Assembly (NCBI GenBank): GCA_003520965.1
Contig: DOTU01000101.1
Coordinates: forward strand, 4,069-29,278
DNA from: Candidatus Zixiibacteriota bacterium
GTDB taxonomy: Bacteria; Zixibacteria; MSB-5A5; UBA10806
Direction of reading: 5' to 3'
DNA: 25,210 bases
Both the position numbers and the translations under genes were made by a program. The notes beneath the pieces were generated by a model. The model saw only the letters and a program-made list of their open reading frames with translations, was not told the DNA's origin and made no database searches. This document shows positions 1-22,883 of the stretch, piece by piece (position 1 is the first letter of the stretch; each line of letters opens with the position of its first letter).

Positions 1-2088
1 TTTCATTATAAGACGCCTGTCTTAATGCGAGAGCAGGTTGTTGGGTATGCATATTTCGGCCTTAAAGAGCAATCACTTTTAATTGATATCAGCCATGCCC
101 GAAGGAATCTCTTTTTAATCAGCTTCATTGGCCTGGTGATTGGTTTTGTGGCGGTATTTGTCCTGTCCAACTACTTCGTAAAACCAATCCAAAAGCTCAC
201 CGAAGGCGTGATGCGAATAGGGGAGGGGAACCTCGATCAAAGCTTGCCTATCGAGGGCGCTGACGAGTTTTCTGATATCGCGCGGGCCTTTAATGAGATG
301 ACTACTAAGTTCAAAAAGGCCCAGGTTAACGTGGTTGAGCAGGAGCGCCTGCAAAAAGAGATGCAGGTTGCTCAAGAGATTCAACACGCACTACTGCCAC
401 GCCATTTCCCCGATATCGAAGGGTACGATATTTCCACAGTCTACCGTGCGGCCAAGGATGTCGGCGGCGATTACTTTGATTTTGTGCAAATCGATAAGGA
501 CGTTCTGGGAATTATAGTGGCCGATGTATCCGGTAAAGGTGTTCCGGGTTCGCTGGTTATGACCATGATTCGTACGGCGCTCCGCCTTGAGGCCAGAGAA
601 AACTACTCACCCACAGATATTTTAGGCAAGGTTAATCATTTTGTGACAGATGATGTCAAGCGCGGCATGTTTATCACTATCTTTTTCATCACCCTGGATA
701 GCGCCAAACGGACCATCTCTTACGCATCCGCCGGACATAATCCGATGATCCTCTACCGCAAAGATTCCGATAATTGCTATTTCCTCAATACACGTGGAAT
801 GCCCTTGGGGATTGCTCTTCCGGATGGCGTAAGCTTCGAAGATTCCCTGGAGTTTGATCGGGTTAAGCTCAAAAAAGACGATATGCTTGTGATCTACACT
901 GATGGTATCACCGAAGCCATGAATAAGGCAGACGAACAGTTCGGGAATGATCGTTTGATTCAATTTATAAAGTCACATGCTGAGCTTCCGCCTGAGGAAT
1001 TCACTAAGAAGCTTGATGCCGAGCTGCACCGCTTCACCGGTGGTGCGCCGCAGGGGGATGATATCACCCTGGTGGTAATTAAAGAAAAGATGATGCTCGA
1101 TGAGCTCGTTTTCGAAAAAAGAAAACGGCTTATGGAGATGGTGGAAAACGAGGGAATTCCCATCGAAGAAGCCTGTGCCCAGATGGGTATCTCACCTTCG
1201 ACTTTTTACAAATACCGCCGTCGCTGGCAAACGCTGGGCGATGTGGGGCTTCTCAACAAAAATCTGAGGGCCGATTCTGTCATCAAACAGATTTCCTACG
1301 AGGTTAGGAAAGAGATTCTGAAGCTGGTCCGTGAAAACCCAGATTTCGGCGCCAAACGGATTATGGATGAGCTAAATAAAAAAGGGATGGCCGATATTGA
1401 TCAACGTGGGCTATATGAGGAGCTTATACGTCTTCGTCTTAATACCAAAAAACTGCGTTTGGAATATGTGGATAGGGTCGGTGGCCTGACGCCGGAGATG
1501 AGCGCCGAGCTTGAAAAAGAGCTGCTCAAAGAAAATGAGAAAAAAGAGGATATCGATCGGGTCGAGTATCTTGAGGAAATAAAGAAAAGCCTCGAATCTA
1601 AAAAGGGTCAGCTTTCATCCACTGCGCGCGATCTTGTAGAAAAGCTTCAAAAAATGGAGCCGGTATTGGGTGATACTATTCTTTATGGCGAGATCGCGGC
1701 TGAACTCACCAAACTTAGAGGCGGTGAGGATATCGCCAAGCTATTCGAAAATATTATTCTCAAGATGGCCGATATGTCCAAAACGCAGGTCCCTGAGCCA
1801 ATCGCTATACCGACTGAAATCCCGGCGGAGCCTGTAGCTCCTCCAAATCTATTTGCTTTAGGCAATCCCAAAGCCAGCGTTGATGCAGAACCAGATCTCG
1901 CTAAGCCTGAACAGGAACAAAGCGCGGTGGAATCCAAGTTAGAGATATCGGAGTTAAGCAGAGATATATCGACGATTAACATAGTTGAATCTGCTTTCAA
2001 AGTTGAAAATGAAAGCGGAGAGGAAGAATCTAAATTTGATTGGGAGGAATATTCGCGCAAACTTACCGATAAGAATAAAGGGAAATGA
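1..2088 (+). CDS. HAMP + SpoIIE/PP2C (RsbU-like) Ser phosphatase with C-terminal transposase-type HTH domains and acidic tail; 5'-partial
   Basis: Frame is open from base 1 (FHYKTPVLMREQ...). It has a TM helix followed by HAMP (KPIQKLTEGVMRIGEGNL...DEFSDIARAFNEM) and PP2C motifs DVGGDYFD, IVADVSGKGVPGSLVM, AGHNP, YTDGITEA, DDITLV. An HTH region (GISPSTFYKYRRRW) follows. Confidence 0.9.
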   Translation, partial: FHYKTPVLMREQVVGYAYFGLKEQSLLIDISHARRNLFLISFIGLVIGFVAVFVLSNYFVKPIQKLTEGVMRIGEGNLDQSLPIEGADEFSDIARAFNEMTTKFKKAQVNVVEQERLQKEMQVAQEIQHALLPRHFPDIEGYDISTVYRAAKDVGGDYFDFVQIDKDVLGIIVADVSGKGVPGSLVMTMIRTALRLEARENYSPTDILGKVNHFVTDDVKRGMFITIFFITLDSAKRTISYASAGHNPMILYRKDSDNCYFLNTRGMPLGIALPDGVSFEDSLEFDRVKLKKDDMLVIYTDGITEAMNKADEQFGNDRLIQFIKSHAELPPEEFTKKLDAELHRFTGGAPQGDDITLVVIKEKMMLDELVFEKRKRLMEMVENEGIPIEEACAQMGISPSTFYKYRRRWQTLGDVGLLNKNLRADSVIKQISYEVRKEILKLVRENPDFGAKRIMDELNKKGMADIDQRGLYEELIRLRLNTKKLRLEYVDRVGGLTPEMSAELEKELLKENEKKEDIDRVEYLEEIKKSLESKKGQLSSTARDLVEKLQKMEPVLGDTILYGEIAAELTKLRGGEDIAKLFENIILKMADMSKTQVPEPIAIPTEIPAEPVAPPNLFALGNPKASVDAEPDLAKPEQEQSAVESKLEISELSRDISTINIVESAFKVENESGEEESKFDWEEYSRKLTDKNKGK

Positions 2089-2828
2089 TTAAATTAGCCA
2101 TCTTGACAGCCAAGGGGGGCACGGGTAAGACCACGACAGCCATTAATCTTGGCCACGGCCTCGCACTTTCGGGCCATCGTGTTCTTATCGTCGATTGCGA
2201 CCCGCAGGGCTCGGCATCGGCAGCTTTTGACGTTAATGGCGAACGCGGCCTGGCGGACCTGCTCTTAGATGGCAAAGTCGATATATTTCAGGTACGGCCC
2301 CATCTCTATTTGCTCCCGTCCGGGCGCAAACGGCTTGCTGAGCTTGAGATTAAGCTTGCAGCCCGCTCGGATCGCCTGGAACGGCTGAAAAACGCAATGG
2401 CGCGCCTCTCTGGTTGCGATTGGGTTATTTTGGATTGCTCTCCTTCCATAAATATTGTAAATTTGAACGCATTGGGGTTTGCGGAGAAGCTCTTGATCCC
2501 ATCCTCGCTCGATTATTTTTCCCTGGAGGGGGTCAAATCGACAATTGAGCTTTCAAACGATATTACGGCTAATGGCGCAGGTAAGCTTGAGATACTTGGC
2601 ATTTTGCCGACATTTTATGATAAGCGAACAAGCGTTTCGCGATTGGCACTTGAGACTCTGAGAAACACTTATGGCAAGATGGTATTCGATACCGAAATCA
2701 GACTTAACGCTGAAATTAAGAAATCGCAGTGGTATAGAAAAACCGTTTTCGAATTTGCTCCTTATTCTCATGGAGCGTACGATTATTTCAAATTAGCAAG
2801 GGAAGTTCTGGAAAGGATACAGGTTTGA
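2085..2828 (+). CDS. ParA/Soj/MinD-family ATPase
   Basis: Deviant Walker A KGGTGKTT, then VLIVDCDPQG, VILDCSPS and LGILPTFYD. ATGA overlap with the upstream stop. Confidence 0.92.
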   Translation: MIKLAILTAKGGTGKTTTAINLGHGLALSGHRVLIVDCDPQGSASAAFDVNGERGLADLLLDGKVDIFQVRPHLYLLPSGRKRLAELEIKLAARSDRLERLKNAMARLSGCDWVILDCSPSINIVNLNALGFAEKLLIPSSLDYFSLEGVKSTIELSNDITANGAGKLEILGILPTFYDKRTSVSRLALETLRNTYGKMVFDTEIRLNAEIKKSQWYRKTVFEFAPYSHGAYDYFKLAREVLERIQV

Positions 2829-2834
2829 GGAGAT

Positions 2835-3566
2835 ATGAGCGATATTAAAATCTCTCTCGACAGTTCGGGGCCCAAAGGGGAGATATCGGTGGTCAGAGTC
2901 GATGGCGTTATTGATACTATGACCGCCACTGACCTCGAAAAGGTAATGAACTCCCTTTTGGAGCGGAAACGATACAATGTCATCATCGATTTGGGTGGAG
3001 TCGATTACATCTCCTCGGCCGGATGGGGCATATTCATCTCCAATATCAGGGAGATCCGGCAGCATTCGGGAGATATCAAACTGGCCCGTATGATTCCCAA
3101 CGTTTATGAAATATTCGAACTGCTGGAATTCGACAGCATTCTGAAGGCATTCGACAGCGTAGAGAAGGCAAAAACTGATTTTGATGGTCTGAAAAAGAGC
3201 CCAGCTGAAGGCGAGGGGGTCGCGGTTATGGCGGAATCCGCTATCAAGAGCGATACGGTAAAAGGCATTCCGCGGGCGCCAGAGGCTCAAATCAGTTCTC
3301 CGTCGCCGCAGCTGCTAAGCGATCCTTCTGAAATCAAGGTAGTAGTCGATGAACCTATGGTTGTGCCTCAGTTGCGCGATATTATCCTTGAGATGATTTC
3401 AAAAGATCCGTTCCTGACAATCTCGGAAATAAAACGAGAGATCCAAAGAAAGCATCCATCATTAAGAATCGGATGGTGGAGAATCTGGGGTGTTTTAAAA
3501 CGGGAAGGACTACTAACCAGGAAAAATCGTTTTCGCAAGGCCAGGCTTAAATCCGGAGGTAATTGA
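2835..3566 (+). CDS. STAS-domain anti-sigma factor antagonist (RsbV/SpoIIAA-like) with C-terminal HTH
   Basis: VVRVDGVIDTMTA...IIDLGGVDYISSAGWG; Ser61 aligns with the phosphorylated Ser58 of SpoIIAA. A Pro/Ser linker leads to an approximately 60 aa HTH-like domain. RBS GAGGAG. Confidence 0.88.
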   Translation: MSDIKISLDSSGPKGEISVVRVDGVIDTMTATDLEKVMNSLLERKRYNVIIDLGGVDYISSAGWGIFISNIREIRQHSGDIKLARMIPNVYEIFELLEFDSILKAFDSVEKAKTDFDGLKKSPAEGEGVAVMAESAIKSDTVKGIPRAPEAQISSPSPQLLSDPSEIKVVVDEPMVVPQLRDIILEMISKDPFLTISEIKREIQRKHPSLRIGWWRIWGVLKREGLLTRKNRFRKARLKSGGN

Positions 3567-3569
3567 CAC

Positions 3570-5405
3570 ATGCCAAACTCCAGGCTTTGGCCTATAGTCC
3601 TGTTAGTATTATTTTTCTGTCTTTTGGTCATTGGCATAGCTTTATTATTTAAAACAGCCTGGATCACCGTACTATTGACTGCTTTGGTTTTGTTGGTTTC
3701 TGCACTAATTATTATTTCCTCTATTCGTGCTTCGCGAGATATTACCATTCTTTCTAAAATTTCAGTTCCGAAAAAGCCCGATGATAATATTTTAGCCTGT
3801 AAGCTATTAACCGAAATTGACCTGGCGCCTGGCGATAAAAAATCGCTGGCCATGAAGGCCTCTGAGGTGCTCAGAGAGAAATTTCAGTTGGAACGATTCG
3901 CCGTCTTCTTTAAAGAAAATGACAAGTACGTCTTAAGAGTCTACTCCGGATTGAACAAGGGCGATCTCGCTATTCCGGCAGCTAATAAATTTAGTCCGTC
4001 TCTTGTGGAAAATATCCAAACCGGCGCCCTTTCGAATAACGAAAGCGATTACCAATTAGCTTTCAAGCGGACCGGGTTCAATTTCGAATCTTCAACGGTA
4101 GCGTTTGCATATTCCTGGGGGAAAACCCGTTCGGTATATTTGGTTGGAGATGATCCCAAGGGTCGTTTCTCGGAGGTTGCCAAGGATTTGGAATTCAACC
4201 GAATTTTCTGGCCGGGTTTGGAAAACGATCTCAAATTAAATCAGAAGCTCTATGAGCGGGGTCAGGAAAACCGTGAGCTTACTCAACTTTTGGAGCAGGC
4301 AAAGAGGGATGTTAGCGAGTTAAATAACGAGCTGAAAAATAGGTTGTTAGATCTAAAGGCTTTTGTTAAAATCTCGAACGACCTTTACTCCTTATTTGAT
4401 GAAACGGAGCTTTTCTCACGGCTCAAAAAGACTGTCTGTGAAAAACTAGGTGCTGTATCTGCCCAGATCCTTGTGCCATCCGGAGACGGGCATTTTATTC
4501 CAGCTGGCGAGGCTGAGCAATCGGAAACAATTCTGTCACTTGATTCCGATTCGGAACTGGCTGAGCTTTTATCCCAATCAGCCAGGCCGGTTCTTCTGCC
4601 TCTCGCCGGTACAGGCTACAAGCATGATGAGCCATTTCTGCGCGCTGCTTTGGGGGCCAACTTTCAGATAGCTTCATCTATTAAAGCCGATGGGAAACCC
4701 GCCTGTATTCTGCTTGTTTCCCAGAAAATGGATAAAACCCAGTACACTAGCCTGGAACTTGATTTCCTTTATATTATCTCGAATATCGCTTCCCTGGCGC
4801 TTGATAATATTCACCAATATAGCACTATCGAAAAGCTATCTTATACCGACAGCATGACCCAGATCTATAACTACCGTTATTTTTACAAACGTCTCAGCGA
4901 GGAAGTTTTGCGTGCCAAACGGTATGACCGTGAGTTGGCGCTGGTCATTCTTGATATTGACAATTTCAAATCTTTTAATGATAATTACGGCCATCAGGCG
5001 GGAGATCTTGTTTTAAGGCAGTTATCTGATCTGATTACGAAAACCATCCGGTCAATCGATGTTGTCAGCCGGTATGGAGGAGAGGAGTTCTGCATTATCA
5101 TGCCCGATACGGGAATTGGTGATTGCGAGACTTTTATCGAAAGGCTGCGTTGCCAGATCGCCGATTTCAAGTTCGAATCCGAACTTTTCCCGCAGGGCGG
5201 TAAAATCTCGGTTTCTGTTGGAGGAGCAGTTTATCCGCATTATGCTTCCATGCCGGATCGGCTGATCTATTGTGCGGATATGGCTCTCCTTAAGGCCAAA
5301 TCCCTGGGGCGGAACCGGGCCGTAATGTATGAACCAGAAGCGCCTGTTGATTCAAAATCCATGGAAGGGGGATTTAATGAGAGCCATCAAGAATCTATTC
5401 TTTAG
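3570..5405 (+). CDS. Membrane-anchored GAF/coiled-coil diguanylate cyclase (GGDEF)
   Basis: Two N-terminal TM helices, a coiled coil and a GAF-like region. Catalytic motifs LDIDNFKSFNDNYGHQAGD and SRYGGEEF; I-site RSID (RxxD) lies five residues upstream of GGEEF. Confidence 0.92.
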   Translation: MPNSRLWPIVLLVLFFCLLVIGIALLFKTAWITVLLTALVLLVSALIIISSIRASRDITILSKISVPKKPDDNILACKLLTEIDLAPGDKKSLAMKASEVLREKFQLERFAVFFKENDKYVLRVYSGLNKGDLAIPAANKFSPSLVENIQTGALSNNESDYQLAFKRTGFNFESSTVAFAYSWGKTRSVYLVGDDPKGRFSEVAKDLEFNRIFWPGLENDLKLNQKLYERGQENRELTQLLEQAKRDVSELNNELKNRLLDLKAFVKISNDLYSLFDETELFSRLKKTVCEKLGAVSAQILVPSGDGHFIPAGEAEQSETILSLDSDSELAELLSQSARPVLLPLAGTGYKHDEPFLRAALGANFQIASSIKADGKPACILLVSQKMDKTQYTSLELDFLYIISNIASLALDNIHQYSTIEKLSYTDSMTQIYNYRYFYKRLSEEVLRAKRYDRELALVILDIDNFKSFNDNYGHQAGDLVLRQLSDLITKTIRSIDVVSRYGGEEFCIIMPDTGIGDCETFIERLRCQIADFKFESELFPQGGKISVSVGGAVYPHYASMPDRLIYCADMALLKAKSLGRNRAVMYEPEAPVDSKSMEGGFNESHQESIL

Positions 5406-6438
5406 AACATTCTTGATACAAACCATTATCGCTTTATCTGCGTTGATATTATTGGGCCAATTCATCGCATTGGGCGGAGCTATTGCTCAAACACAAACAG
5501 AGCAGCAAACTAATGAAAATGATCAGGCTCAAGCCAAAAATGAATTATACCTTATTGGAAATCTGGATAGATTATCGGTAACTTTTTGGCAGCAACCCGA
5601 TCTCAATCGTGAGGTTAGGGTTGATGAGAACGGTATGATCAGTTTACCGGTTATCGGCGAAATCAAGGCCGCGGGGCAAACGCCCAATGAGCTATCCAAA
5701 AAAATTATCCAGCAAATGAGTATCTACAATACTCCGGTGTCCCAGGCGACTGTCAATGTCGTAGAGTTTAATTCTCGAAGCGTAGTAGTATCCGGGCATG
5801 TGTTGACCCCCGGCAGTCGTCGATACGAGAAAATTCCCGATGTATGGCAGGTCATCCTCGACGCGGGTGGTCCGACATCCGATGCCGATCTCTCTCGAGT
5901 CAGTATAGTTAGAAAAGAGGGCGGTAAATCGAATATTATCAATGTTGACTTGTATAAAATTATTCAATCGGGCGATCTCAGCAAAGCTCCTCAGCTTCAA
6001 CCCGGGGATTTGGTCAATGTGCCTCTTTCGACTCTGGGCTCCAATTTGGCTTTTCCCAGCCAGCAGAAATTTGAGGGTAGGAATATTTTCTTCGTCTTCG
6101 GCCAGGTTACAGAACAGGGACCCCGGAACCTTGAGGACGGGATGGACGTTTTAGACGGCATTGCGGCCGCTAAGGGCTTTACCATAGATGCTGATCTAAA
6201 AAATGTTACTGTTATAATGAAAGATGCGAAATATTCAAATGTGGTAAGACTCAATATGTCCAGATATATAAAAACCGGCCAGCCAGCCAGAATGATGTTG
6301 CATCCCGAGGATACCATAGTCGTACCGGCTAAGGGTGGGTTTTTCCGAGCCATGTCAAATCTAAATACGGTCGTACCGATTTTGGGAACTATGGCCACCA
6401 TGATAATTCTAATCAGGGATATCAGACGCAATCCTTGA
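5377..6438 (+). CDS. Polysaccharide export protein (OPX/Wza-like; Poly_export + SLBB domains)
   Basis: RVDENGMISLPVIGEIKAAGQTPNEL, SLBB repeats (VVVSGHVLTPG, FVFGQVTEQG) and LQPGDLVNVP / LHPEDTIVVP. Start re-set to ATG 5377 after SD GGGGGA; signal peptide present. Confidence 0.88.
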   Translation: MRAIKNLFFRTFLIQTIIALSALILLGQFIALGGAIAQTQTEQQTNENDQAQAKNELYLIGNLDRLSVTFWQQPDLNREVRVDENGMISLPVIGEIKAAGQTPNELSKKIIQQMSIYNTPVSQATVNVVEFNSRSVVVSGHVLTPGSRRYEKIPDVWQVILDAGGPTSDADLSRVSIVRKEGGKSNIINVDLYKIIQSGDLSKAPQLQPGDLVNVPLSTLGSNLAFPSQQKFEGRNIFFVFGQVTEQGPRNLEDGMDVLDGIAAAKGFTIDADLKNVTVIMKDAKYSNVVRLNMSRYIKTGQPARMMLHPEDTIVVPAKGGFFRAMSNLNTVVPILGTMATMIILIRDIRRNP

Positions 6439-6491
6439 TGAATGGATAGTTTTAGCACTCAAGGCCTAAGGCAATAAAAAAAGGCAACGTT

Positions 6492-8078
6492 TTGGAAAAC
6501 GAAAAATCACAAATTGATCTTAAAAGTTATTGGGCCATTCTCGAAAGGCGTAAGGCGCTGCTTATCTTGCCCCTGATGATTGTGCCTTTGGTGGCTTTTC
6601 TCATCACCTATTTTATGAAGCCTACCTATGTTTCAACTGCGACAATATTAATAGGCGACACAAGGGTTTTGCCTACAACAGTTCAACAGGATATTGGGGG
6701 TCGCGCTGGAGGTTATGATTTTCGTACCATTCAGGATATCCAAAGTTCCTTTCTTAACCAGATTACCTCAACCAAGTACTTGAAACGGCTTATCGCCGTT
6801 CTCGATATTCCGATTCCGGAAGAAATTAAAAAGGTAGTAGCTGTTACCAAGGCCAGCTTCCCTCAAATAACCGAAAATGAACTGGCAGAGAACATACTTG
6901 TTGACTTGCTGCGCAAGCAAGTCATTGTTAACATGAAAGCGAATAATCTTATCGAAGTTTCCATCACGGGTACCGATCCGATTGGAGTTCAAAAAGAAGC
7001 AGCCGCCTTAGCCGATATTTTCATCGAGGAAAATCTGGCTGCCGAATTGGCCGGAATTCGTTCCAGTATTTCATTTTCGGAGGATCAACTCGAATTTTAT
7101 AAAAATAAACTTAAAGATGCTGAAGATAAGCTTCGTAATTTCCGCCAGAGCCTTTTAACCTCGTCCTTCGGACAGGACACCAGTTCCAACAATCTCAGAG
7201 AAATCGCCGCAGCAGTACAGGCGCTGGATATGGATATCGCCGGAGAGAGCGATCAACAAGCTAACCTGCGTACAGCTCTGGATAACTCCAATGTCGATGT
7301 CAATAATATGGTACTACCGGCCAATATCGATTCAATTCGTGATAAACTCCTGGGAAGCGTCACCCAATTATCAGATTTATTGACCAGTTACAATTGGAAA
7401 GACGTTCGGGTGGTGAGCGTCAATGAGGAAGCACGCGGCCTCCTGGACCAAATGGCCGCTCAAATAAAAGCATGGGCCGAACAACGCTATCCTGATCAAA
7501 CCCCGGATATGCGGGCAACTATAATCAGTTATCTTTCTGGCAATATCATTATGGATTTCAATCGGGCCAAGCGCGCCAGCCTCGACTCTTACATTGGTAA
7601 AACACGTGCCAGGTTAGGAGAGAACCCTGGTACAGCAATTACCATGCAACGATTACAAAGCGAGGTCGATAGCTATAAAAAATTCTATGATCTTTTCGTT
7701 TCTCATTCGCAAAATGCTGCTATTAATCAGTCAGCTATTAAGGTAGAGGCCGAGGCCAAATATACCGTTATCAAACCGGCCACGCTTCCGTTATCGCCTG
7801 ATTCGCCAAAAAGATTCCGCATTCTTGGCATGGGCTTGGCTTTGGGCCTGGCTCTGGGATTGGGCGCCATTATGGTTGTCGAGCTTTTGGACGACTCCTT
7901 TAAAAAAGTGGAAGATGTAACAGCTTATCTAAGGCTGCCGGTGATCGGGACTATCCCCAGGATGGAATTACCCTTTGGTAACTCGTCGAAGAAACATGTG
8001 CCTATCATAATTGGATTAGCCATTAGCTTTCTTCTTTTTATTTCGATAGTGATTTTACACTTAAAAAAGAACGGATAA
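6492..8078 (+). CDS. Polysaccharide co-polymerase / chain-length determinant (Wzc N-terminal, GumC-like)
   Basis: Wzz-type N-terminus (IDLKSYWAILERRKALLILP...KPTYVSTATILI), a long periplasmic coiled coil, PATLPLSPDSPKR + TM, and the DDSFKKVEDV...LPVIGTIP activator segment. TTG start. Confidence 0.88.
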   Translation: MENEKSQIDLKSYWAILERRKALLILPLMIVPLVAFLITYFMKPTYVSTATILIGDTRVLPTTVQQDIGGRAGGYDFRTIQDIQSSFLNQITSTKYLKRLIAVLDIPIPEEIKKVVAVTKASFPQITENELAENILVDLLRKQVIVNMKANNLIEVSITGTDPIGVQKEAAALADIFIEENLAAELAGIRSSISFSEDQLEFYKNKLKDAEDKLRNFRQSLLTSSFGQDTSSNNLREIAAAVQALDMDIAGESDQQANLRTALDNSNVDVNNMVLPANIDSIRDKLLGSVTQLSDLLTSYNWKDVRVVSVNEEARGLLDQMAAQIKAWAEQRYPDQTPDMRATIISYLSGNIIMDFNRAKRASLDSYIGKTRARLGENPGTAITMQRLQSEVDSYKKFYDLFVSHSQNAAINQSAIKVEAEAKYTVIKPATLPLSPDSPKRFRILGMGLALGLALGLGAIMVVELLDDSFKKVEDVTAYLRLPVIGTIPRMELPFGNSSKKHVPIIIGLAISFLLFISIVILHLKKNG

Positions 8079-8084
8079 AAGGCT

Positions 8085-9203
8085 ATGCCGCCGATTGGAT
8101 TCACAGATAAATTTCGTCGCCTGGGACGGGACTACCTGTTGCAAACATCATTCAGCGAAGCCCGCAAGATGATTGTTTGCTCGCTATTCCACTCAGGCCA
8201 ACTAATTAGTAGCCGCGCATTTCCCCTGACTGATGAGCTTGAGGGTGACGCGTTGCTTACTAAGGTTTCTCAGAAACATGAATATTGTCTTTCTGATATT
8301 ACCGCTCTGCTTGGTTTGGCGGAGAATATGCGCGAGTTGGAGAAACCGGAACTTATCGAAAAGCTTGGGCGAACCCTATGCTCCCGGGAGCTTTACGATG
8401 AGGGCTGCGAACTCCTCACTTTCGCCGTACAGCGGTATCCGGAGGTTCCCGGATTGCGCCTTGCGTTGGGACGGATATACCATGCTAAACGGCAGTTTGA
8501 AGAGGCCAGAGAGCAACTATCACAAGCGGTGGAGTTGGCGCCAAGTTATCCCGATTATAGAAATATCCTCGGTGTTACTTATTTGAAATTGAACAAGCCG
8601 GTAGCTGCTATTGATGAATTTCGAAAGGCTGCCGAATTAAATATTTACTACGAAGAAGCCTATTTCAATCTCGGCCTGGGTTATATCTTAAATGGTATCG
8701 TTAAAGAGGATTTTAACCTGGCTAAAAACCTCCTCGGTAATTGCCAGGAAGCTTTTCAGAAGGCCGCGTTGTTCAATCCAGCCTATATTACCGAAAATTA
8801 CGAAAAGGGTATTGCGCTTCTCAGCGAGGGGAATCTTGAGCAATCCTATGAAATTCTCACCCAAGTTGGGGGTGATGTTGTAAGTCACGCTAACGATGAG
8901 AAACTCCTTGAGATGTATATGCGCTGTATTCACGGACAAAATGGCCTGACTGAGGCCGGAATTAAGCAATATGTCGATGAGTTAAGCGAGCTTCTCAAGG
9001 CAAATCCCGGCCACGCCGATCTGCACAACGAGTTGGGTATGGCCTACACCATCATGAGTAAATTCCTAAACAATAAAGCAATGGAGCACTTCCAGGAAGC
9101 CTTGCGGATAAATCCCGGTTTCGCAAGGGCCGTCAGAAACTTAAAGCTGTCACAAAATGACCTTAAGGGCTTTGAGGTACTGCTGGAAGCGATTATACGA
9201 TGA
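8085..9203 (+). CDS. Tetratricopeptide-repeat protein (cytoplasmic, no signal peptide)
   Basis: Repeated TPR consensus (LALGRIYHAKRQFEEAREQLSQAVELAPSY; NILGVTYLKLNKPVAAIDEFRKAAELN; NELGMAY...EALRINPGF). Confidence 0.85.
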   Translation: MPPIGFTDKFRRLGRDYLLQTSFSEARKMIVCSLFHSGQLISSRAFPLTDELEGDALLTKVSQKHEYCLSDITALLGLAENMRELEKPELIEKLGRTLCSRELYDEGCELLTFAVQRYPEVPGLRLALGRIYHAKRQFEEAREQLSQAVELAPSYPDYRNILGVTYLKLNKPVAAIDEFRKAAELNIYYEEAYFNLGLGYILNGIVKEDFNLAKNLLGNCQEAFQKAALFNPAYITENYEKGIALLSEGNLEQSYEILTQVGGDVVSHANDEKLLEMYMRCIHGQNGLTEAGIKQYVDELSELLKANPGHADLHNELGMAYTIMSKFLNNKAMEHFQEALRINPGFARAVRNLKLSQNDLKGFEVLLEAIIR

Positions 9204-9919
9204 GAAAACCAGTTTCTTTGTTGTCGCTTTACCATAAAGAATCATCGATGGGAACCGAGTTTCGCCGTCTTTACGCTAATATTAAAAGCAAAAACCGCGA
9301 CCAAAACCTGCAAAGCTTGCTGGTCACATCAGCTACGGTGGGCGAGGGTAAATCGCTAACCAGCAGCCTTTTGGCTATTACTATTGCCGAACTTACCAAG
9401 CTTAAAGTCGCCTTAGTTGATTTCGATATGCGGCGTCCAAGGATAGCCCAATATTTCGATCTTGAAAATGAAAATGGCGTAGCCGATGTTTTAACGGGCA
9501 AATTATCACTAAAAGCCGTTTCACGGAAAACTACGGTCCCCAACCTAACTGTTGTTCCTGCTGGTCGTTTGGACGTTCTACCCACTGACGTTTTAGAGCA
9601 TGAGCGTGTCTCCAATTTCTTTCAGGAACTCAAATTTTACTTCGATCAAGTTATCGTAGATTCTCCGCCGGTAATACCAGTTTCCGACCCGATGCTTATT
9701 TCTGAGCATGTCGATGGGGTTATCATGGTAGTCAGGGGCGGTTCTACTCAAAGAGAAGTTGTCAGCAGGGCATCTAATTTATTGATCAATGCCAAGATAA
9801 ACGTCATCGGAGTTGTCCTGAATGATTATGAGGAAGTTCTGCCTTACTATTACAAAGAACGCTACTATGGGTATCAATATTACCACAAGGATTTGAAGGA
9901 AAACAAATCTTCATCCTAA
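9200..9919 (+). CDS. CpsD/CapB-family bacterial tyrosine kinase (BY-kinase)
   Basis: VTSATVGEGKSLT (Walker A), LVDFDMRRP (A'), VIVDSPP (B) and a C-terminal Tyr cluster YYYKERYYGYQYY. ATGA overlap with the TPR gene. Confidence 0.93.
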   Translation: MRKPVSLLSLYHKESSMGTEFRRLYANIKSKNRDQNLQSLLVTSATVGEGKSLTSSLLAITIAELTKLKVALVDFDMRRPRIAQYFDLENENGVADVLTGKLSLKAVSRKTTVPNLTVVPAGRLDVLPTDVLEHERVSNFFQELKFYFDQVIVDSPPVIPVSDPMLISEHVDGVIMVVRGGSTQREVVSRASNLLINAKINVIGVVLNDYEEVLPYYYKERYYGYQYYHKDLKENKSSS

Positions 9920-10135
9920 ATGCTTTTACTGCATTATTTCTGCATTTAATTGCATAATTAACAGCTTAAGCTGATTAGAGTTTAAGCCATTTTGTATATC
10001 CAATTGTTGTCTGACTCAAACTGGAACATAAGCAGCCTACCCTAACTTATTATATCTTATATAATTACAACTATCGGGGGATGGTTTTTCAAGATTGCTA
10101 TTTTTCTCAAATTCTTTTCCCTCATAGCGTATTTG

Positions 10136-10151
10136 TGGCAGCAAATTTGCA
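10136..10151 (+). promoter_or_regulatory. sigma-54 (-24/-12) promoter of the sugar transferase
   Basis: TGGCAGCAAATTTGCA has GG-N10-GC with TGGCA and TTGCA flanks, 60 nt upstream of ATG 10211. Confidence 0.7.
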
Positions 10152-10210
10152 TTAAACCCTAAGCAAAGGGGTAAAAATCGATTAACAATGATTATTGGAG
10201 ATACGACTTT

Positions 10211-11110
10211 ATGAGATATCAATATTCTGCACCAAACCCGCTCGGACACTACTGGGACGAAGAGTCGGTCAGTGTTTTGGGCATCAGGTTTGGGATATCG
10301 AGGAAAGCCGGGTTTTATTTTAGCTATCTTCTCGAAGAAATACTTCTCGCCAATTTTTTCCTCCTGTTTCAGTTAATCCTCAACCAAGCTTTGATACTTG
10401 GGGCGAGAAGATCATTTGTTCGAGCATCGCATCGAATCGATATCGGCGCAACGGCTAAGAGAACCATAGATATATCGGGCGGCGTGGTTGGATTGATTTT
10501 GAGCCTGCCGCTATGGATAATGGTAGCGATAGCAATTAGACTCGATTCCAAAGGCCCCATTTTCTACAGGCAGGAGAGAGTCGGACAGAATCGCCGCCGT
10601 CGGGATCGCCGGGCAGTAAACCTTGCCGGCGCAGAGAGACGATCATCTGTTGATCGTCGAACCACTGTCGGACACGGTAAAAGGTTCTGGATCGTTAAAT
10701 TCCGCAGCATGTACGTCAACGCAGAATCGACCACAGGACCGGTTTGGGCTCAGAAAAATGATCCTCGCATTACTCGTGTCGGACGCATTTTACGAGCCAC
10801 CAGGCTGGATGAGCTTCCCCAGATATTAAATGTTCTCGCCGGAGATATGAGCCTGGTTGGGCCTCGGCCGGAAAGACCGTTTTTCGTGGAAGATTTGCAG
10901 ACCAAGATAAAAGATTACACTACTCGTTTTTATGTAAAACCCGGGATCACAGGATTGGCCCAGGTTGAGCACAAGTATGATGAAAGCATCGAGGACGTTT
11001 CCAAAAAGATCACCTACGATCTGCATTACATTCGCAATTGGACAGTTCTGCAGGATGTTAGAATCATTATGAAAACGATTGTGGTAGTCTTGACAGCCCG
11101 TGGCATGTAA
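10211..11110 (+). CDS. Priming sugar transferase (Bac_transf; WcaJ/WbaP/PglC-like polyprenyl phosphoglycosyl transferase)
   Basis: KRTIDI...[11 protein letters not shown]...KFRSM...[38 protein letters not shown]...[11 protein letters not shown]...YDLHYIRNW. Confidence 0.94.
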
Positions 11111-11140
11111 AACAATGAATTATTGAATAGAATCTTTGCC

Positions 11141-11163
11141 GGGGGAGTTGCTCCCCCTTTTTT
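11141..11163 (+). terminator. Intrinsic terminator after the sugar transferase
   Basis: GGGGGAG-TTG-CTCCCCC hairpin followed by TTTTTT. Confidence 0.8.
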
Positions 11164-11178
11164 ATTGCTATAAATTAC

Positions 11179-11207
11179 TTGCGAAAAAAGTCCCTTTGAT
11201 TTAAGTT
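11179..11207 (+). promoter_or_regulatory. Candidate sigma-70 promoter for the 11416-16953 operon
   Basis: TTGCGA-N17-TAAGTT. An alternative TTGAAA-N17-TATAAG lies at 11278-11306. Confidence 0.3.
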
Positions 11208-11415
11208 AATTTCCGAGGGACAACGGATGCGAATACAGAACGTCTTAGCCCCAGGCTGAGGCAACATAATTTCCTGATTGAAAAGATCCCGGATACATTA
11301 TATAAGAATGACTAAGAGCAATGAGTCTCGATCCTTTAGAAGGGGATAATCGTTCCGATAAAAATACAGGCCCTTCTGTTTCGGGACAATTGAGTTACAG
11401 TGAGGGGAAGGAGCA

Positions 11416-12135
11416 ATGAAAATGAGAATCTTTTTTTGCATAACGGCGATTGTTTGTTTGACCGGCTTGTTCCTGGCACAGCCTGGCGTTGCCCAAAAAA
11501 CGGATAATTATATTTTGACCACCAATCCAGCGGGGGCAACGGCATATTTCTGTGGCGAATATAGCCTCGTCGTCAATACACCGGCCGCATTACCGTCAAA
11601 TCTATCAGGTCAATACAAGGTTAGAATTGCCCGGTCCGGATACGAAACCTGGAAGGGAGAACTGTCTTTCCTGCCCGGGAGTCCGAACAGCGTGAATATT
11701 AATCTTTCCCCAAAAACGCGATTTAAAGCTGGCCTACGTTCCCTGTTTATTCCTGGCTGGGGGCAGCATTATGAGGGATGCGGCACTCGGGGTACTGCAT
11801 TCACTTTGGGGATTATTGGGGCAGGAACCTTGCTCTATATTTCCGATCGAAAATATCAAGATAGACGCGGCGACTACGATATTGCCAACTACAACTACAC
11901 TAATGCGACATCCATAACCCAAAGGGAACAGCTTATGGTAATCAGGGATGCTGCCCAGCGAAAAGCCTATAAGGCGGAAACGGATCGCCGACGCGTATTC
12001 TATGCTGGAATCGGGATTTGGGTCTATAATATTTTTGATTCAATGATCTTCTTTCCGGAAGGTTCAGCTTACTACCCCACGGTCACGGCCGATAACGGGG
12101 GTGGGGCAAAGTTATCACTGGTAGTCAAGTTTTAG
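11416..12135 (+). CDS. Exported PEGA-domain protein with DUF5683-like C-terminal domain
   Basis: Signal peptide; PEGA-like ILTTNPAGATAYF...NTP...YKVRIARSGYETW; SLFIPGWGQHY motif with hydrophobic helices; C-terminal beta-strand ending in Phe (KLSLVVKF). Confidence 0.65.
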   Translation: MKMRIFFCITAIVCLTGLFLAQPGVAQKTDNYILTTNPAGATAYFCGEYSLVVNTPAALPSNLSGQYKVRIARSGYETWKGELSFLPGSPNSVNINLSPKTRFKAGLRSLFIPGWGQHYEGCGTRGTAFTLGIIGAGTLLYISDRKYQDRRGDYDIANYNYTNATSITQREQLMVIRDAAQRKAYKAETDRRRVFYAGIGIWVYNIFDSMIFFPEGSAYYPTVTADNGGGAKLSLVVKF

Positions 12136-12145
12136 GAGGGATATA

Positions 12146-14299
12146 ATGAACACCAGAATCAAATTGATTGCGATTGCAGGGGTATTGTTGTTAACAGCAT
12201 TCTCCTGCTCGCGAAATATTCCAGAGCCGGTTTCGCCGCCGATTAATGATAATATCCCACCCAAGCCTGCCAATTTCACAGCATCAGTGGGTGATCGGAT
12301 GGCCTTTTTAACCTGGTCAATATCCGATACTCAGAATATCAGCATCTATCGTATATACCAGTCTGATTCGGATAGTCTGCATTTTAGGGTAGTGGCTGAA
12401 GTAACGCAAACATCTTATGCGGCTAATAACCTGCACAACGGAATAACTTATTACTTTAAGGTCGCGGCCGTAAACAACTCAGGGTTCGAAGGCTATAGTA
12501 GCGATATGTTGTCAACAGTACCAGACCTTTACGGAATAATAATTAACGATGGAGCCAGGTATACTAATGATCGCAACGTAGGCCTGACTATGGTCGCCCC
12601 AACCGGCACCCGATATATGCAGGTTTCCAACGACTCAACCTTTGCCGGAAATCCATGGGAAAATTACGTCCTTACCAAAATTTGGGAACTGACCGCCGGA
12701 GATCAGACCAAAGCCGTTTTTGTAAAATATCGCAATCATAACGATGAGATAACATCAACATACTATTCGGCTAATATCACGCTGGATACCCATGCCGCCA
12801 TTGATTCGATTACCTTTACACCGGAAAGCCAACCGTATGTTGCCGGTGAGCTTGTTCATTTCAAGTTGTTTGCTGAAGAATCGGAGGGTCAGGCTCGAAC
12901 AACCGTGGGGCAGGGACTGATTAACCTTACTCTATATGATGACGGCAGTAGAGGGGATGCGGTTTCCGGCGATGGTATTTACGAGTGCGATTACATAATT
13001 GCAGGGAACCTAGATTTCGCCAATGCAACTGTTTATGGGAATTTTACCGATCGCGCTTCTAATACAGCTCAGCAAATCCAGGCTCGGAGAAATATGTCTG
13101 TAACCCGAGCGCCGGACCCGGTGACGATCTTCGGAATCGTTCCTCCAACCGGTTTTTTCGATCGTTTGCAAATCAATTGGAATGCTACACCGGCCAGTGA
13201 TTTCGCCCAATATCGTGTCTATCGAGCATTATCCGCCAATGTCGATTCCAGCGATTATTTGGTGGAAGTCATAAGTCAAATATCTATTACCTCTCTTACC
13301 GATACCGGTCTAACCGCGAATACGGTTTATTACTACAAAGTTTATGTCGTAGACAATACCGGCTTATGGGCTGGATCAAATGAGGTCCATGCCAGCACTA
13401 ATGCGAATCTCCCACCTGATCCAGTGGTACTTTTTCCGCCGGTTGCTCTTCCTGGAACGCATGACAGATTGAGTCTTTCCTGGTCCGCCAGTCATGATCA
13501 GGATTTTCTGCGCTACGAACTGTACCGCTCTTATGATAACAATGTTACGGTGTCTGATATCCTGATACTGGCATCAGCTACCCAGACCACGGCTGTAGAT
13601 TCCAATCTTGCGGCGGATTCAGCATACTATTACCGTGTGCAGATTATGGATCGGGCGGGGAATTTATCCTGGTCAAATACTGTCAGCGGACGAACCGGGC
13701 TGGACCTTGGTCCCGATCCGGCCACCTTGTATCCGGTCGAAGTTGCACCAGATTATTATCAAAGTGTGAGATTACAATGGTCACAGCCATATATTTCCGA
13801 TTTCCAATCATACAGGGTCTATTCCTGGAAGACCGATTCCGGCCGCTCAGACAGCCTATTAGCGGCAATTATATCCCGTCAGGATTCGATGGCCCTGACT
13901 CTTCATCCCATATTCGATGTCGGGGCTGATACGCTCAATTACTGGTTTATTATCCATACCAACGATATTGGAGGACATCATGCTGCCTCTAACAGCCTCA
14001 GGGTGCATCTTGTTGATAACCCTCCGGGTCTGGTAAGCGGAACGGTTATTGCTGAGAGCACCTTTATTTCTGTTTCCTGGAATGCGACGGAAATCCCCGA
14101 TTTCGGCAGTTATCGTTTGATGCGGGATACCCTTTCGTCCCCTGCTCAAAGCGTGCCGGTTTTTATGTCGACCACCCAGAGCGTTACCAATTACCATGAC
14201 TACGGTCTTGTTCGGGGACACACTTACTATTACTGGCTTGATATTTATGATACACGGGGGCATAGTTCTAGATCGAATTTGGGCAGTCGCCAATGGTAA
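12146..14299 (+). CDS. Lipoprotein with about five fibronectin type III repeats and a choice-of-anchor-X-like segment
   Basis: Lipobox AFS-C21. Fn3 units (L.W...DF..YR.YR......YYY.V...D....S.SN): one N-terminal and four tandem C-terminal. LYDDGSRGDAVSGDGIY motif. Confidence 0.85.
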   Translation: MNTRIKLIAIAGVLLLTAFSCSRNIPEPVSPPINDNIPPKPANFTASVGDRMAFLTWSISDTQNISIYRIYQSDSDSLHFRVVAEVTQTSYAANNLHNGITYYFKVAAVNNSGFEGYSSDMLSTVPDLYGIIINDGARYTNDRNVGLTMVAPTGTRYMQVSNDSTFAGNPWENYVLTKIWELTAGDQTKAVFVKYRNHNDEITSTYYSANITLDTHAAIDSITFTPESQPYVAGELVHFKLFAEESEGQARTTVGQGLINLTLYDDGSRGDAVSGDGIYECDYIIAGNLDFANATVYGNFTDRASNTAQQIQARRNMSVTRAPDPVTIFGIVPPTGFFDRLQINWNATPASDFAQYRVYRALSANVDSSDYLVEVISQISITSLTDTGLTANTVYYYKVYVVDNTGLWAGSNEVHASTNANLPPDPVVLFPPVALPGTHDRLSLSWSASHDQDFLRYELYRSYDNNVTVSDILILASATQTTAVDSNLAADSAYYYRVQIMDRAGNLSWSNTVSGRTGLDLGPDPATLYPVEVAPDYYQSVRLQWSQPYISDFQSYRVYSWKTDSGRSDSLLAAIISRQDSMALTLHPIFDVGADTLNYWFIIHTNDIGGHHAASNSLRVHLVDNPPGLVSGTVIAESTFISVSWNATEIPDFGSYRLMRDTLSSPAQSVPVFMSTTQSVTNYHDYGLVRGHTYYYWLDIYDTRGHSSRSNLGSRQW

Positions 14300-15147
14300 A
14301 AACCAAGCTCTCGTTTCTCGATAAGCTGAACATGTTTGTAAGTATCTATGGGCAGCTTTTTATCAGTATTTTTCGTTTTTCCTGGTGGTCGCCTTTCTTT
14401 ATCTATGCCATTTTTCAAACAATCGGTTTTTTAGCATTGTTATGGTATTATGCCCCCATTTTATCGTCCACAGTTTATCCGATTATCTCTCTCTTCCTGC
14501 CGCCAAATGCTTTTCATTACCCACAATACTACCTGGCTTTACCATCGCTCTATGCCACCTACGAGAGTTTGATTTTAGGTATTACTGTCTGGATAGTATT
14601 GGCAGCCGCTGCGGTTTACAGGTTTTCGGGAATTTACAATGGTAAAGTACCTGCGCTTCGAGATAGTATCAGGCTGGCGATGCGCTCTTATCTTCCATTG
14701 CTTTTAGTCTGGCTCCTGGAAACGGTGTTGGTCATTATTATCCTCTACCTACCGAGTCATTTATTAAAAAATATGATTGCCGATTCGCCGAACCGGGCTG
14801 CCCTGGCTGATGTCGTTTTTGAAACGATCGGGCTGGGAGTGACCGCGATGCTGATCTACGCCGTTCCCGGTATTATACTTGATGGTAAAAAAGTTTGGCA
14901 GGCTATTCAGGACAGTATTGGTCTTTTTATGCGCAATTTCATCTTTACTTATTCGATTGTATTCTTCCCAAGCTTTTTGCGCATAATTATGAATCTGCTG
15001 CTTACCAGTTACGCACCCAAAATCATAACGATTCTAAACCCCGAGTTAATTCCTACAATCATGTTTATTTACATTTTCGCGGGGATATTCATTAATCTAT
15101 TTATTTATGGCGCGGCAGTATTTGCCTACAAGAGAATGGCGGATTAG
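14293..15147 (+). CDS. Multi-pass integral membrane protein, unknown function
   Basis: About 6-7 hydrophobic helices; overlaps the upstream stop; the long ORF fills the operon gap. Confidence 0.75.
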   Translation: MVKTKLSFLDKLNMFVSIYGQLFISIFRFSWWSPFFIYAIFQTIGFLALLWYYAPILSSTVYPIISLFLPPNAFHYPQYYLALPSLYATYESLILGITVWIVLAAAAVYRFSGIYNGKVPALRDSIRLAMRSYLPLLLVWLLETVLVIIILYLPSHLLKNMIADSPNRAALADVVFETIGLGVTAMLIYAVPGIILDGKKVWQAIQDSIGLFMRNFIFTYSIVFFPSFLRIIMNLLLTSYAPKIITILNPELIPTIMFIYIFAGIFINLFIYGAAVFAYKRMAD

Positions 15148-17372: not shown

Positions 17373-17786
17373 ATGAGAACTGGAAACAAGAAAGGCTTTA
17401 CGCTGATTGAGCTGATGATCGTGGTGGTCATTATCGGCATCCTGGCCGCTTTAGCAATACCCCGGTTTATGCGCTCAACTACCAAAGCCAAACAATCGGA
17501 AGCCAAGCAGCTTCTTAAGCAGATTTACACCATGCAGCACGCCTACAGACAGGAATTCAACGCTTACTGCCTGAACGGCATAACGGCAGCCGCGGGTAGC
17601 GCCAACTTCGCCAGAATAGGCGTCGACGTGGGAGCATCTGCTCGCTACAGCTACGCGATGGTTTCCGCAGCTAACACCTTCACCTGTACAGCCACAGCCA
17701 ATCTGGATGACGATGCCACAACTGACACCTGGACCATTACCGAAACAGGTACTTTAACCTGTACCATTGACGACTCGGTAACTTGA
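17373..17786 (+). CDS. pilA: Type IVa pilin, copy 1
   Basis: Class III signal KKG|FTLIELMIVVVIIGILAALAIP with Glu5; RBS GAGGT; 129 aa mature. Confidence 0.93.
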   Translation: MRTGNKKGFTLIELMIVVVIIGILAALAIPRFMRSTTKAKQSEAKQLLKQIYTMQHAYRQEFNAYCLNGITAAAGSANFARIGVDVGASARYSYAMVSAANTFTCTATANLDDDATTDTWTITETGTLTCTIDDSVT

Positions 17787-17806
17787 TCGTAAGCTGGACC
17801 TACAGC

Positions 17807-17830
17807 AGGGGGATGGTTCTCCATCCCCCT
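17807..17830 (+). terminator. Stem-loop between pilin 1 and pilin 2 (weak terminator or mRNA stabiliser)
   Basis: Perfect 10 bp stem AGGGGGATGG-TTCT-CCATCCCCCT followed by an imperfect U tract (TATTGATTT). Confidence 0.6.
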
Positions 17831-17876
17831 TATTGATTTCCAAAATGATGATAGTTCAACCATAAAGGAGACGATA

Positions 17877-18293
17877 ATGCAAAGGGGAAATAGAAAAGCC
17901 GGCTTCACGCTAATCGAACTGATGATCGTGGTGGTCATTATCGGCATCCTGGCGGCACTGGCTATACCTCGGTTCATGCGTTCAACAACCAAAGCCAAAC
18001 AGTCTGAAGCCAAGCAACTTCTAAAGCAGATTTACACTATGCAACACGCTTACAGGCAGGAATTCAATTCTTACTGCCTGAATGGTATAACAGCAGCTGC
18101 GGGTAGCGCCAACTTCGCCAGAATAGGCGTTGACGTGGGAGCATCTGCACGCTACAGCTACGCCATGGTTTCTGCAGCCAATACATTTACTTGCACAGCT
18201 ACAGCCAACCTGGATGATGACGCCACCACCGATACCTGGACCATCACTCAGGCAGGTACGTTAACCTGCACCATCGATGATTCGGTAACGTAA
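17877..18293 (+). CDS. pilA: Type IVa pilin, copy 2 (3 aa differences from copy 1 in the mature protein)
   Basis: KAG|FTLIELMIVVVIIG; RBS AAGGAG. Confidence 0.93.
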   Translation: MQRGNRKAGFTLIELMIVVVIIGILAALAIPRFMRSTTKAKQSEAKQLLKQIYTMQHAYRQEFNSYCLNGITAAAGSANFARIGVDVGASARYSYAMVSAANTFTCTATANLDDDATTDTWTITQAGTLTCTIDDSVT

Positions 18294-18307
18294 GATTTAA
18301 TGGCTTT

Positions 18308-18337
18308 GGGGGGTGAGTTAGCGCCCCCCTTTTTTTT
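18308..18337 (+). terminator. Intrinsic terminator after pilin 2
   Basis: GGGGGGTG-AGTTAG-CGCCCCCC (8 bp, one G-U pair) followed by T8. Confidence 0.82.
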
Positions 18338-18366
18338 GCTAGATTGACAACAGGATTGAGGCTGCC

Positions 18367-18792
18367 ATGAACACGAAGAAGAAAAATAATTCGGCTGGTT
18401 TTACACTGATTGAGTTGATGATTGTTGTAGTAATTATCGGCATCCTCGCCGCTCTGGCAGTCCCCAGATTCATGAAGGTCGCATCGAAATCCAAACAATC
18501 GGAAGCCAAGCAACTATTGAAGCAGATATACACAATGCAGGGGGCATATTTCGGTCTTTATGATACCTACTGCCTTAACGGTGTCCAGGCTTCCACGGCA
18601 GCGCCATTTGCCTTCGCCCAAATTCATGTGGATGTAATGTTACCGGCAAGATATGTTTATAGTATGGTTTCCACGCAGAATACTTTTACGTGCACCGCGA
18701 CAGCCAATTTAGATACCGATCCCACGGTTGATACCTGGTTGATAACTAATACCGGTACTCTTGTTAATACCATTGATGACTCTCAAGATTAG
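18367..18792 (+). CDS. pilA: Type IVa pilin, divergent copy 3 (about 69% identical to copy 1)
   Basis: SAG|FTLIELMIVVVIIG; hand alignment gives about 90/130 identities. Confidence 0.9.
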   Translation: MNTKKKNNSAGFTLIELMIVVVIIGILAALAVPRFMKVASKSKQSEAKQLLKQIYTMQGAYFGLYDTYCLNGVQASTAAPFAFAQIHVDVMLPARYVYSMVSTQNTFTCTATANLDTDPTVDTWLITNTGTLVNTIDDSQD

Positions 18793-18827
18793 ACGATATT
18801 GCCACTCCCACATCTGTTTTTTTCCGG

Positions 18828-18856
18828 TTTACATAATGATATTAAGAGCGTATATT
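18828..18856 (+). promoter_or_regulatory. sigma-70-type promoter of pilD
   Basis: TTTACA-N17-TATATT, one mismatch from consensus in each hexamer. Confidence 0.6.
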
Positions 18857-18862
18857 TAAGGT

Positions 18863-19645: not shown

Positions 19646-19684
19646 AATGCTTCACAATAGACTATTTATGCCGATAAATGGTAT

Positions 19685-22870: not shown

Positions 22871-22883
22871 TGATTTAACCTCC

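Follow-up and report, generated by a model that had tools for sequence, protein, structure and literature searches.

How might an envelope signal be coupled to polysaccharide secretion in a bacterium that nobody has cultured? This question is raised by a 25,210-nucleotide (nt) stretch of DNA from a Candidatus Zixiibacteriota bacterium (assembly GCA_003520965.1, contig DOTU01000101.1, positions 4,069 to 29,278), hereafter the window, in which genes for a PP2C-type sensor phosphatase, a ParA ATPase, a STAS protein and a diguanylate cyclase directly precede genes for polysaccharide export. Zixibacteria, which have not been cultured, are common in soils, wetlands and sediments; to our knowledge, nothing is known about how they build biofilms. 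Our answer, which we hold to be probable though well short of certain, is that the locus is a zixibacterial envelope-signalling and secretion cluster, in which a switch resembling SypE/SypA is wired to the adjacent cyclase within an export locus.

We assigned domains to the open reading frames (ORFs) with Pfam and NCBIfam profile models and their curated cut-offs. The eight co-directional genes described by the initial annotation were recovered at the coordinates it had given, and are followed by a putative control region and a ninth gene:

1 to 2088 (in-window part 25 to 2088), + strand: 3′ part of the sensor kinase/phosphatase gene (SpoIIE E 4.6e-51, HAMP 7e-14, helix-turn-helix (HTH) families HTH_23/28/29/32)
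2085 to 2828, + strand: orphan ATPase of the Soj/ParA type (AAA_31 E 8e-34, CbiA)
2835 to 3566, + strand: STAS protein with a C-terminal domain, 243 amino acids (aa) (STAS PF01740 E 1.8e-17)
3570 to 5405, + strand: membrane diguanylate cyclase, 611 aa (GGDEF E 3.9e-42)
5377 to 6438, + strand: Wza-like outer-membrane polysaccharide export (OPX) protein (Poly_export E 1.3e-20, SLBB/SLBB_2)
6492 to 8078, + strand: polysaccharide co-polymerase (PCP), PCP-2b-like, with a Wzz N-terminus and GNVR and without a kinase domain (Wzz E 3.7e-07, GNVR 2e-04)
8085 to 9203, + strand: tetratricopeptide repeat (TPR) protein (TPR families)
9200 to 9919, + strand: stand-alone bacterial tyrosine kinase (BY-kinase) of the CapB/EpsB type (TIGR01007, 138.8 bits against a cut-off of 108)
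9930 to 9956, + strand: triple TGCA direct repeat, a candidate upstream activator site, kept in relatives
10136 to 10151, + strand: sigma-54 type −24/−12 promoter motif, TGGCAG-N5-TTGCA, with one mismatch to the consensus
10211 to 11110, + strand: polyprenyl-phosphate sugar-phosphate transferase, the priming enzyme (Bac_transf E 9e-66; EPS_sugtrans 288.8 bits)
11141 to 11157, + strand: strong predicted intrinsic terminator at the end of the transferase unit, with a 7-bp GC stem and then a T run

The eight genes are tightly packed. Reading the junctions directly, we found the two annotated ATGA overlaps, at 2085–2088 (PP2C/ParA) and 9200–9203 (TPR/BY-kinase), as well as the 29-nt overlap of the cyclase and OPX genes; the OPX ATG, at 5377, is preceded by a strong GGAAGGGGG Shine-Dalgarno sequence. 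The remaining gaps are of 6, 3, 53 and 6 nt, all within the annotated limit of 53 nt, the 3-nt gap being that between the STAS and cyclase genes. The OPX, PCP, BY-kinase and priming transferase genes all lie no more than 7 kb downstream of the STAS gene.

The initial annotation had staked its reading on this gene order being kept in relatives. We fetched 80 species-level loci with the STAS protein, labelled Zixibacteria or carrying coarse or other labels (mostly Ignavibacteria), and compared them by tblastn and ORF tracing (L-numbers below are locus labels). Indeed, the order kinase/PP2C, ParA, STAS, GGDEF, OPX, PCP, TPR, BY-kinase was found in most of the 80, a recurrence that is far beyond chance. 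The kinase/PP2C gene lies upstream of STAS in 65 of 68 loci, and GGDEF follows STAS directly in 65 of 69; of 62 loci, 54 have OPX after GGDEF on the same strand, while it was convergent in 4 (plus L019 and L004) and was not found in 4. The STAS-GGDEF-export block is intact even in L036, L052 and L065, where no kinase/PP2C gene was seen in the ~4–10 kb upstream. Across the phylum a STAS homologue is present in 238 of 285 genomes, including 178 of the 198 high-quality ones, and is absent from three families. Near-identical DNA also occurs in soil and wetland metagenomes, which contained 0.92–0.97 of the sampled words. Our search of the literature on Zixibacteria and exopolysaccharide, or on STAS and ParA, found nothing on this cluster.

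The partner switch proved to be more complete than the window itself reveals. The phosphatase gene is cut by the window edge, its ORF being open to base 1 and running on upstream. The part inside the window encodes the second transmembrane (TM) helix, HAMP, PP2C, two HTH modules and an acidic tail, and the match to the SpoIIE-family PP2C (PF07228) spans profile positions 3–190 of 192. The initial annotation suspected that an RsbW-type kinase lay upstream, and we found a HATPase_c_2 (RsbW/SpoIIAB-type) kinase domain there, ~1.4 kb upstream of the window (L002:2691–3078, E 2.4e-25). It had missed, however, that relatives encode one SypE-like polypeptide: kinase and PP2C form a single ORF (~970 aa), including the N-terminal HATPase_c_2, in 63 of 65 related loci, and are also one ORF in the nearest relative (91% STAS identity). 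The architecture of the relatives runs kinase, TM, Cache-like domain, TM, HAMP, PP2C, with or without the HTH tail. Between kinase and PP2C we recognized TM, sCache_3_2 and HAMP, with no receiver (REC) domain among them. On the present contig (L002, contig C93) the gene is broken by two N runs, 3079–3430 and 3697–4068, and the distance between the start of the kinase and the stop of the phosphatase exceeds that in the nearest relative by 541 nt. RsbW models scored 63–71 bits in the orthologue, below the curated cut-offs. Judged from their motifs, which are intact, all three activities of a partner switch (kinase, PP2C and STAS) are represented.

The STAS protein, a single ORF in the window, has the features expected of a phosphorylated switch. 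When the protein is aligned to SpoIIAA/TM1442, Ser61 falls on their phosphoserine, in the loop before helix 2; it is invariant in two sets of 21 and 50 homologues. The model superposes on SpoIIAA (1tid_B) at Z 19.7, and its closest fold match is SpoIIAA bound to SpoIIAB. In the model a STAS fold (residues 1–121) is followed by a disordered linker, a three-helix HTH-like bundle and a basic terminal helix, the last two (residues 180–240) predicted with a local distance difference test score (pLDDT) of ~90. Invariant columns include DPF, GWW and R-x-R-x-x-R. Profile-profile comparison matched this C-terminal domain to the second HTH of the phosphatase tail with 82% probability (E 1e-5); BLASTP of the tail against the STAS C-terminus gave no significant match (E 0.19). 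When the complete model was used for a fold search, STAS matches filled the results, which thus say nothing specific about the C-terminal bundle. In one family many genomes match over the STAS part only, with ORFs of ~130–150 aa and the C-terminal domain not in frame.

The neighbouring enzyme, predicted to make cyclic diguanylate (c-di-GMP), has its catalytic motif intact. Its model (pLDDT 87) has two TM helices, a GAF-like domain, a coiled coil, a second GAF-like domain and GGDEF, and the top Foldseek matches are structures of phytochrome-cyclase and GAF-cyclase proteins. The active site reads GGEEF and the I-site RxxD. Both GG(D/E)EF and RxxD are invariant in homologues, and the invariant residues include R494, D497, G503, G504, E506 and F507. 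In the genome, a 70%-complete metagenome assembly, we found only two full GGDEF genes and one PilZ gene (contigs C57, C93 and C125), which suggests that the window cyclase accounts for a large part of c-di-GMP output. The PilZ gene lies at a contig end, beside genes for a response regulator and a GAF histidine kinase. Co-folding of STAS 1–125 with the cytoplasmic portion of the cyclase, 70–611 (50-row matched alignments, no controls) gave a score of 0.00 and was uninformative either way.

The export genes encode a recognizable split machine. The OPX protein carries Poly_export and SLBB and the co-polymerase Wzz and GNVR; the BY-kinase has Walker A, A′ and B motifs and a C-terminal Tyr cluster, with 8 Tyr in the last 25 residues. 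The TPR protein, in whose N-terminus we saw no signal peptide when reading it by eye, is always paired with the BY-kinase, both being present in all 55 loci with room downstream. The same exporter, Wzz-GNVR co-polymerase and separate Tyr autokinase make up split OPX/PCP-2b/BY-kinase modules of the CapA/CapB type and those of XrtA exopolysaccharide loci. The present module differs in having a TPR gene between co-polymerase and kinase, and the XrtA-specific models all scored below their cut-offs (export 129.8 against 180 bits, chain-length (pepcterm_ChnLen) 160.3 against 278.85, kinase 136.7 against 230.65); an exosortase gene is present in the genome, on another contig. Among the window ORFs scanned, no Wzx/Wzy Pfam families or further glycosyltransferases were recognized.

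Are these genes one transcription unit, as the initial annotation claimed? As it had required, we found no convincing internal terminator: + strand candidates before 9919 are weak and fall within coding sequence, and a strong one first appears at 11141–11157. Terminator-like hairpins in 1–12200 are at chance level (15, against 13.3±3.4 in shuffles). RNA-library contigs of 99–100% identity span two of the junctions, PP2C/ParA (3 runs) and STAS/GGDEF (2 runs). None of the contigs listed bridges ParA/STAS or cyclase/OPX, and they leave large gaps (e.g., 3841–4992 and 6529–8448), which is not evidence of absence. The tight packing, the lack of a convincing terminator and the RNA bridges speak for the operon, but a single operon overstates the case, as the export block is convergent or absent in some relatives. 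The extent also needs amending, because the unit does not begin with the eight genes but runs upstream to the RsbW-like kinase domain and a gene for a PorV-like/TPR protein. The eight genes, therefore, plausibly form one unit here, which extends upstream.

Downstream the cluster meets a conserved boundary. The 292-nt gap between the BY-kinase and transferase genes holds both the TGCA repeat and the sigma-54 motif. The triple repeat, right past the BY-kinase stop, is unique in the window (0 expected in shuffles) and was found at the same place in 10 fetched loci, representing 9 distinct relatives (L003 and L007 are the same stretch). The sigma-54 motif lies 60 nt before the priming transferase gene. 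With up to 2 mismatches allowed, 18 of 18 loci have it there, the spacer being variable; with up to 1, 13 of the 18 do. At the starts of the other cluster genes in these 18 loci no motif with up to 1 mismatch was seen, and a search upstream of the regulatory genes gave no sigma-54 site; over the whole window the consensus is not enriched (9 matches, 10.4 expected), and we give weight only to the conserved match preceding the transferase. RNA-library contigs over the transferase start at 10167, 10180 and 10192, i.e. 16–41 nt past the motif. The parallel that the initial annotation drew with sigma-54-driven exopolysaccharide genes of the syp locus thus holds before the priming transferase, but this is the sole such promoter and it lies outside the eight genes. 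With a conserved promoter and repeat of its own, the transferase is set apart as a separate unit that probably depends on an activator; at least nine full sigma-54 activators are encoded in the genome. Matches to sigma-70-type promoters are at chance level (20, against 20.5). One of them, 4957–4985 in the cyclase gene (TTGACA-17-GATAAT, 11 of 12 positions), stands ~390 nt before the OPX start and is either an internal promoter or chance.

In the circuit that we favour, the membrane sensor, with its RsbW-type kinase on one side of a periplasmic Cache-like domain and HAMP and its PP2C on the other, would follow the logic of SypE, a transmembrane sensor replacing the receiver domain, and would set the phosphorylation of Ser61 of STAS. 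By analogy with HsbA-HsbD and SypA, the phospho-state of STAS may then gate the GAF-GAF-GGDEF cyclase (as phosphorylated HsbA, HsbA-P, acts on HsbD), the export machine (as SypA does), or both. Local c-di-GMP would promote polysaccharide secretion via OPX, PCP, TPR protein and BY-kinase, and may also act, via a sigma-54 activator, on the priming transferase. The Soj-like ParA, present only together with the HTH-tailed phosphatase, probably places the complex in the cell. The binding partners, the direction of control, the receptor for c-di-GMP and the roles of ParA and the HTH domains are parts of this circuit that we infer.

Of the analogues named in the initial annotation, the syp locus stands, but SiaABCD scores below the model cut-offs, and HsbR/HsbA/HsbD, the closest system for coupling of STAS to a cyclase, had been missed. 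SiaC is a DUF1987 protein and SiaB is not known to be a HATPase_c_2 kinase. Unlike in SiaABCD, the switch protein here is a true PF01740 STAS, which SiaC matches at Z 8.3 only; the SiaA model gave 90.2 bits against 700, and the SiaD model 146.2 against 290. What is shared with SiaABCD, a Pseudomonas aeruginosa operon that controls aggregation, is the set of a HAMP-PP2C membrane phosphatase, a kinase, a small switch protein and a cyclase (PMC8457831). SypE and SypA of Vibrio fischeri act in the syp polysaccharide locus (PMC10120452, PMC4517449), and in SypE, as in the single ORF of the relatives studied here, an N-terminal RsbW-like kinase and a C-terminal PP2C flank a regulatory module (PMC10120452, PMC4517449). 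Also common to both are a STAS substrate, Wza-like, Wzz-like and kinase-like export genes in a polysaccharide locus, and the use of sigma-54. The central module here, however, is a transmembrane Cache-like/HAMP sensor and not a receiver; the cluster has in addition a Soj-like ParA and a GGDEF cyclase, phosphatase and STAS both carry HTH domains, and sigma-54 is seen only before the priming transferase. In the HptB-HsbR-HsbA-HsbD system of P. aeruginosa, HsbA-P binds the cyclase HsbD and promotes biofilm (PMC5085249). It resembles the present cluster, as read in the relatives, in combining a bifunctional kinase/phosphatase, a STAS protein and a neighbouring membrane diguanylate cyclase (PMC5085249), and by this analogy STAS and cyclase may bind each other here too. 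HsbR differs in its order, receiver-PP2C-kinase, and in its phosphorelay input, and the Hsb cluster is without export genes, HsbA being STAS-only and also binding FlgM. A STAS switch likewise controls heterocyst polysaccharide (bioRxiv 10.64898/2026.04.08.717354), so that direct control of polysaccharide synthesis by such switches has a precedent.

Several observations weigh against this circuit. The protein contacts and enzyme activities of the cluster proteins are inferred, no c-di-GMP receptor was identified in the cluster, and the kinase and PP2C pieces are separated here by N runs and lie in different frames, so that the fusion is readable only in relatives. In one subclade (L004, L019, L041, L044, L045 and L050) the export block runs convergently, and export genes were not found beside the cyclase in L051, L061 and L080, indicating that co-transcription of signalling and export is not obligatory. 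Four loci have no GGDEF match after STAS, the next match being OPX in L048 and L078, which suggests that the link between STAS and export may bypass c-di-GMP. The RNA contigs are short and of low depth, and the libraries may contain carried-over DNA; the RNA signals are, therefore, weak hints only. Finally, STAS carries a conserved HTH-like C-terminal domain, pointing to a possible DNA-binding output.

This last point is the core of the main rival, which we regard as unlikely: STAS would itself be the output, a phospho-switched DNA-binding regulator that, with its HTH-like domain and the phosphatase tail, binds operators such as the TGCA repeats at 9930–9956, the cyclase being a parallel or downstream component and not its direct target. 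The confident three-helix bundle with its basic helix (residues 180–240), the invariant DPF, GWW and R-x-R-x-x-R columns, the profile match to the second phosphatase HTH and the conserved repeat upstream of the sigma-54 promoter are all consistent with it. DNA binding, however, is predicted from a model, and the pairwise BLASTP comparison gave the E of 0.19 noted above; the repeat occupies the usual position of sites for sigma-54 activators, of which the genome has many; and in the family noted above many genomes match over the STAS part only. More classically, the RsbW-like domain could hold a sigma factor at the membrane until dephosphorylated STAS frees it for surface genes, the cyclase and export genes then being merely members of the regulon or neighbours. 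The kinase is RsbW/SpoIIAB-like (HATPase_c_2; 70.9 bits in L005) and the STAS fold is closest to SpoIIAA in its complex with SpoIIAB, but the RsbW score is below the curated cut-off of 145, the domain is in relatives part of one protein with a membrane sensor and a phosphatase, as in SypE/HsbR, which are not known to hold sigma factors, and among the window genes scanned we saw none for a sigma factor. Besides the window STAS only one further STAS gene was found in the genome, on contig C291 (L086), where a 112-aa STAS-only protein (2280–2618) is followed by a 157-aa stand-alone RsbW-like kinase (2662–3135). The presence of this canonical pair elsewhere argues that the window module is distinct from it, and we consider an anti-sigma switch at this locus very improbable.

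We give least credence of all to the view that the signalling and export operons are functionally uncoupled, independent neighbours in a surface-structure gene island. The export block can indeed be inverted or absent, the priming transferase has its own promoter, and only ~2 arrangement changes fall on the tree, so that much of the conservation reflects shared descent. Yet adjacency is kept across families at STAS identities down to ~42–45%, an inverted export block is still next door, STAS, GGDEF and export genes stay together even without an adjacent kinase/PP2C, and the genes overlap in this genome. Of these explanations the switch wired to cyclase and export thus remains the one that we prefer.

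What ParA contributes is a separate question. The protein has a deviant Walker A motif, KGGTGKTT (residues 10–17), and matches Thermus Soj (1wcv) over its full length (residues 3–246, E 5e-41). No member of the ParB family was matched among the window genes scanned, and no genome search for parB was made. The phosphatase ends in FDWEEYSRKL (window positions 2029–2058), the conserved form being F-D-W-x-E-Y-x-R-K-L, and a similar end peptide (hydrophobic-D-W/F-x-D/E-Y-x-K/R-K/R-L, then basic residues) occurs in nearly all ParA-containing loci with the tail; L037 has kept the tail, lost ParA and lacks the peptide. We regard the peptide as a candidate ParA-docking motif. ParA and the HTH tail were both present in 48 loci, both absent in 23 and mixed in 1. 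This split corresponds to only 2–3 changes on the tree and is thus a clade trait, giving no statistical evidence of coupling; co-evolution of ParA and tail as a statistical claim was dropped for this reason. One deep clade is without ParA, phosphatase tail and PCP together, OPX being followed directly by TPR and BY-kinase (L040, L043, L054, L055, L059, L060, L064, L066–L070, L075, L079 and L083). It is conceivable, though rather doubtful, that the tail is a ParB-like adaptor, its HTHs touching the nucleoid and its end peptide recruiting or stimulating ParA, so that a ParA gradient would position the switch, its STAS-HTH substrate, the cyclase and the export nozzle at particular places in the cell. 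Spatial control of the cyclase is a part of the Hsb system (PMC5085249).

Further genes flank the cluster on both sides. Upstream lies a gene for a PorV/PorQ-like outer-membrane barrel fused to TPR repeats (L002:909–2630; 79.8 bits against a cut-off of 90) and, further upstream, the end of a gene for a giant protein with a type A sorting domain of the type IX secretion system (L002:1–804). Both are conserved upstream neighbours, and the switch may belong to a larger surface-structure island. Downstream, a 284-aa protein (14293–15147) matches no family; after surface-protein genes, 17373–21472 holds three tandem type IV pilin genes, a prepilin peptidase and a PAS histidine kinase, and a TldD/PmbA metallopeptidase gene pair lies on the − strand (21509–24356).

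The cluster thus offers a circuit specific enough to be tested: the genes that would lead from an envelope signal, through Ser phosphorylation and c-di-GMP, to polysaccharide export are neighbours, and stay so across the phylum. It would be a new layout of a type of biofilm control for which Vibrio and Pseudomonas provide precedents: SypE/SypA and HsbA/HsbD, solutions known from Proteobacteria, would recur, fused and extended, in a distant lineage, and the cluster would be an unusually compact system in which to ask how STAS acts on a cyclase or an export machine. Should the added ParA and HTH domains be functional, they would tie partner switching to spatial organization, and, if the adaptor idea were true, the nucleoid would guide the placement of a secretion and signalling machine.

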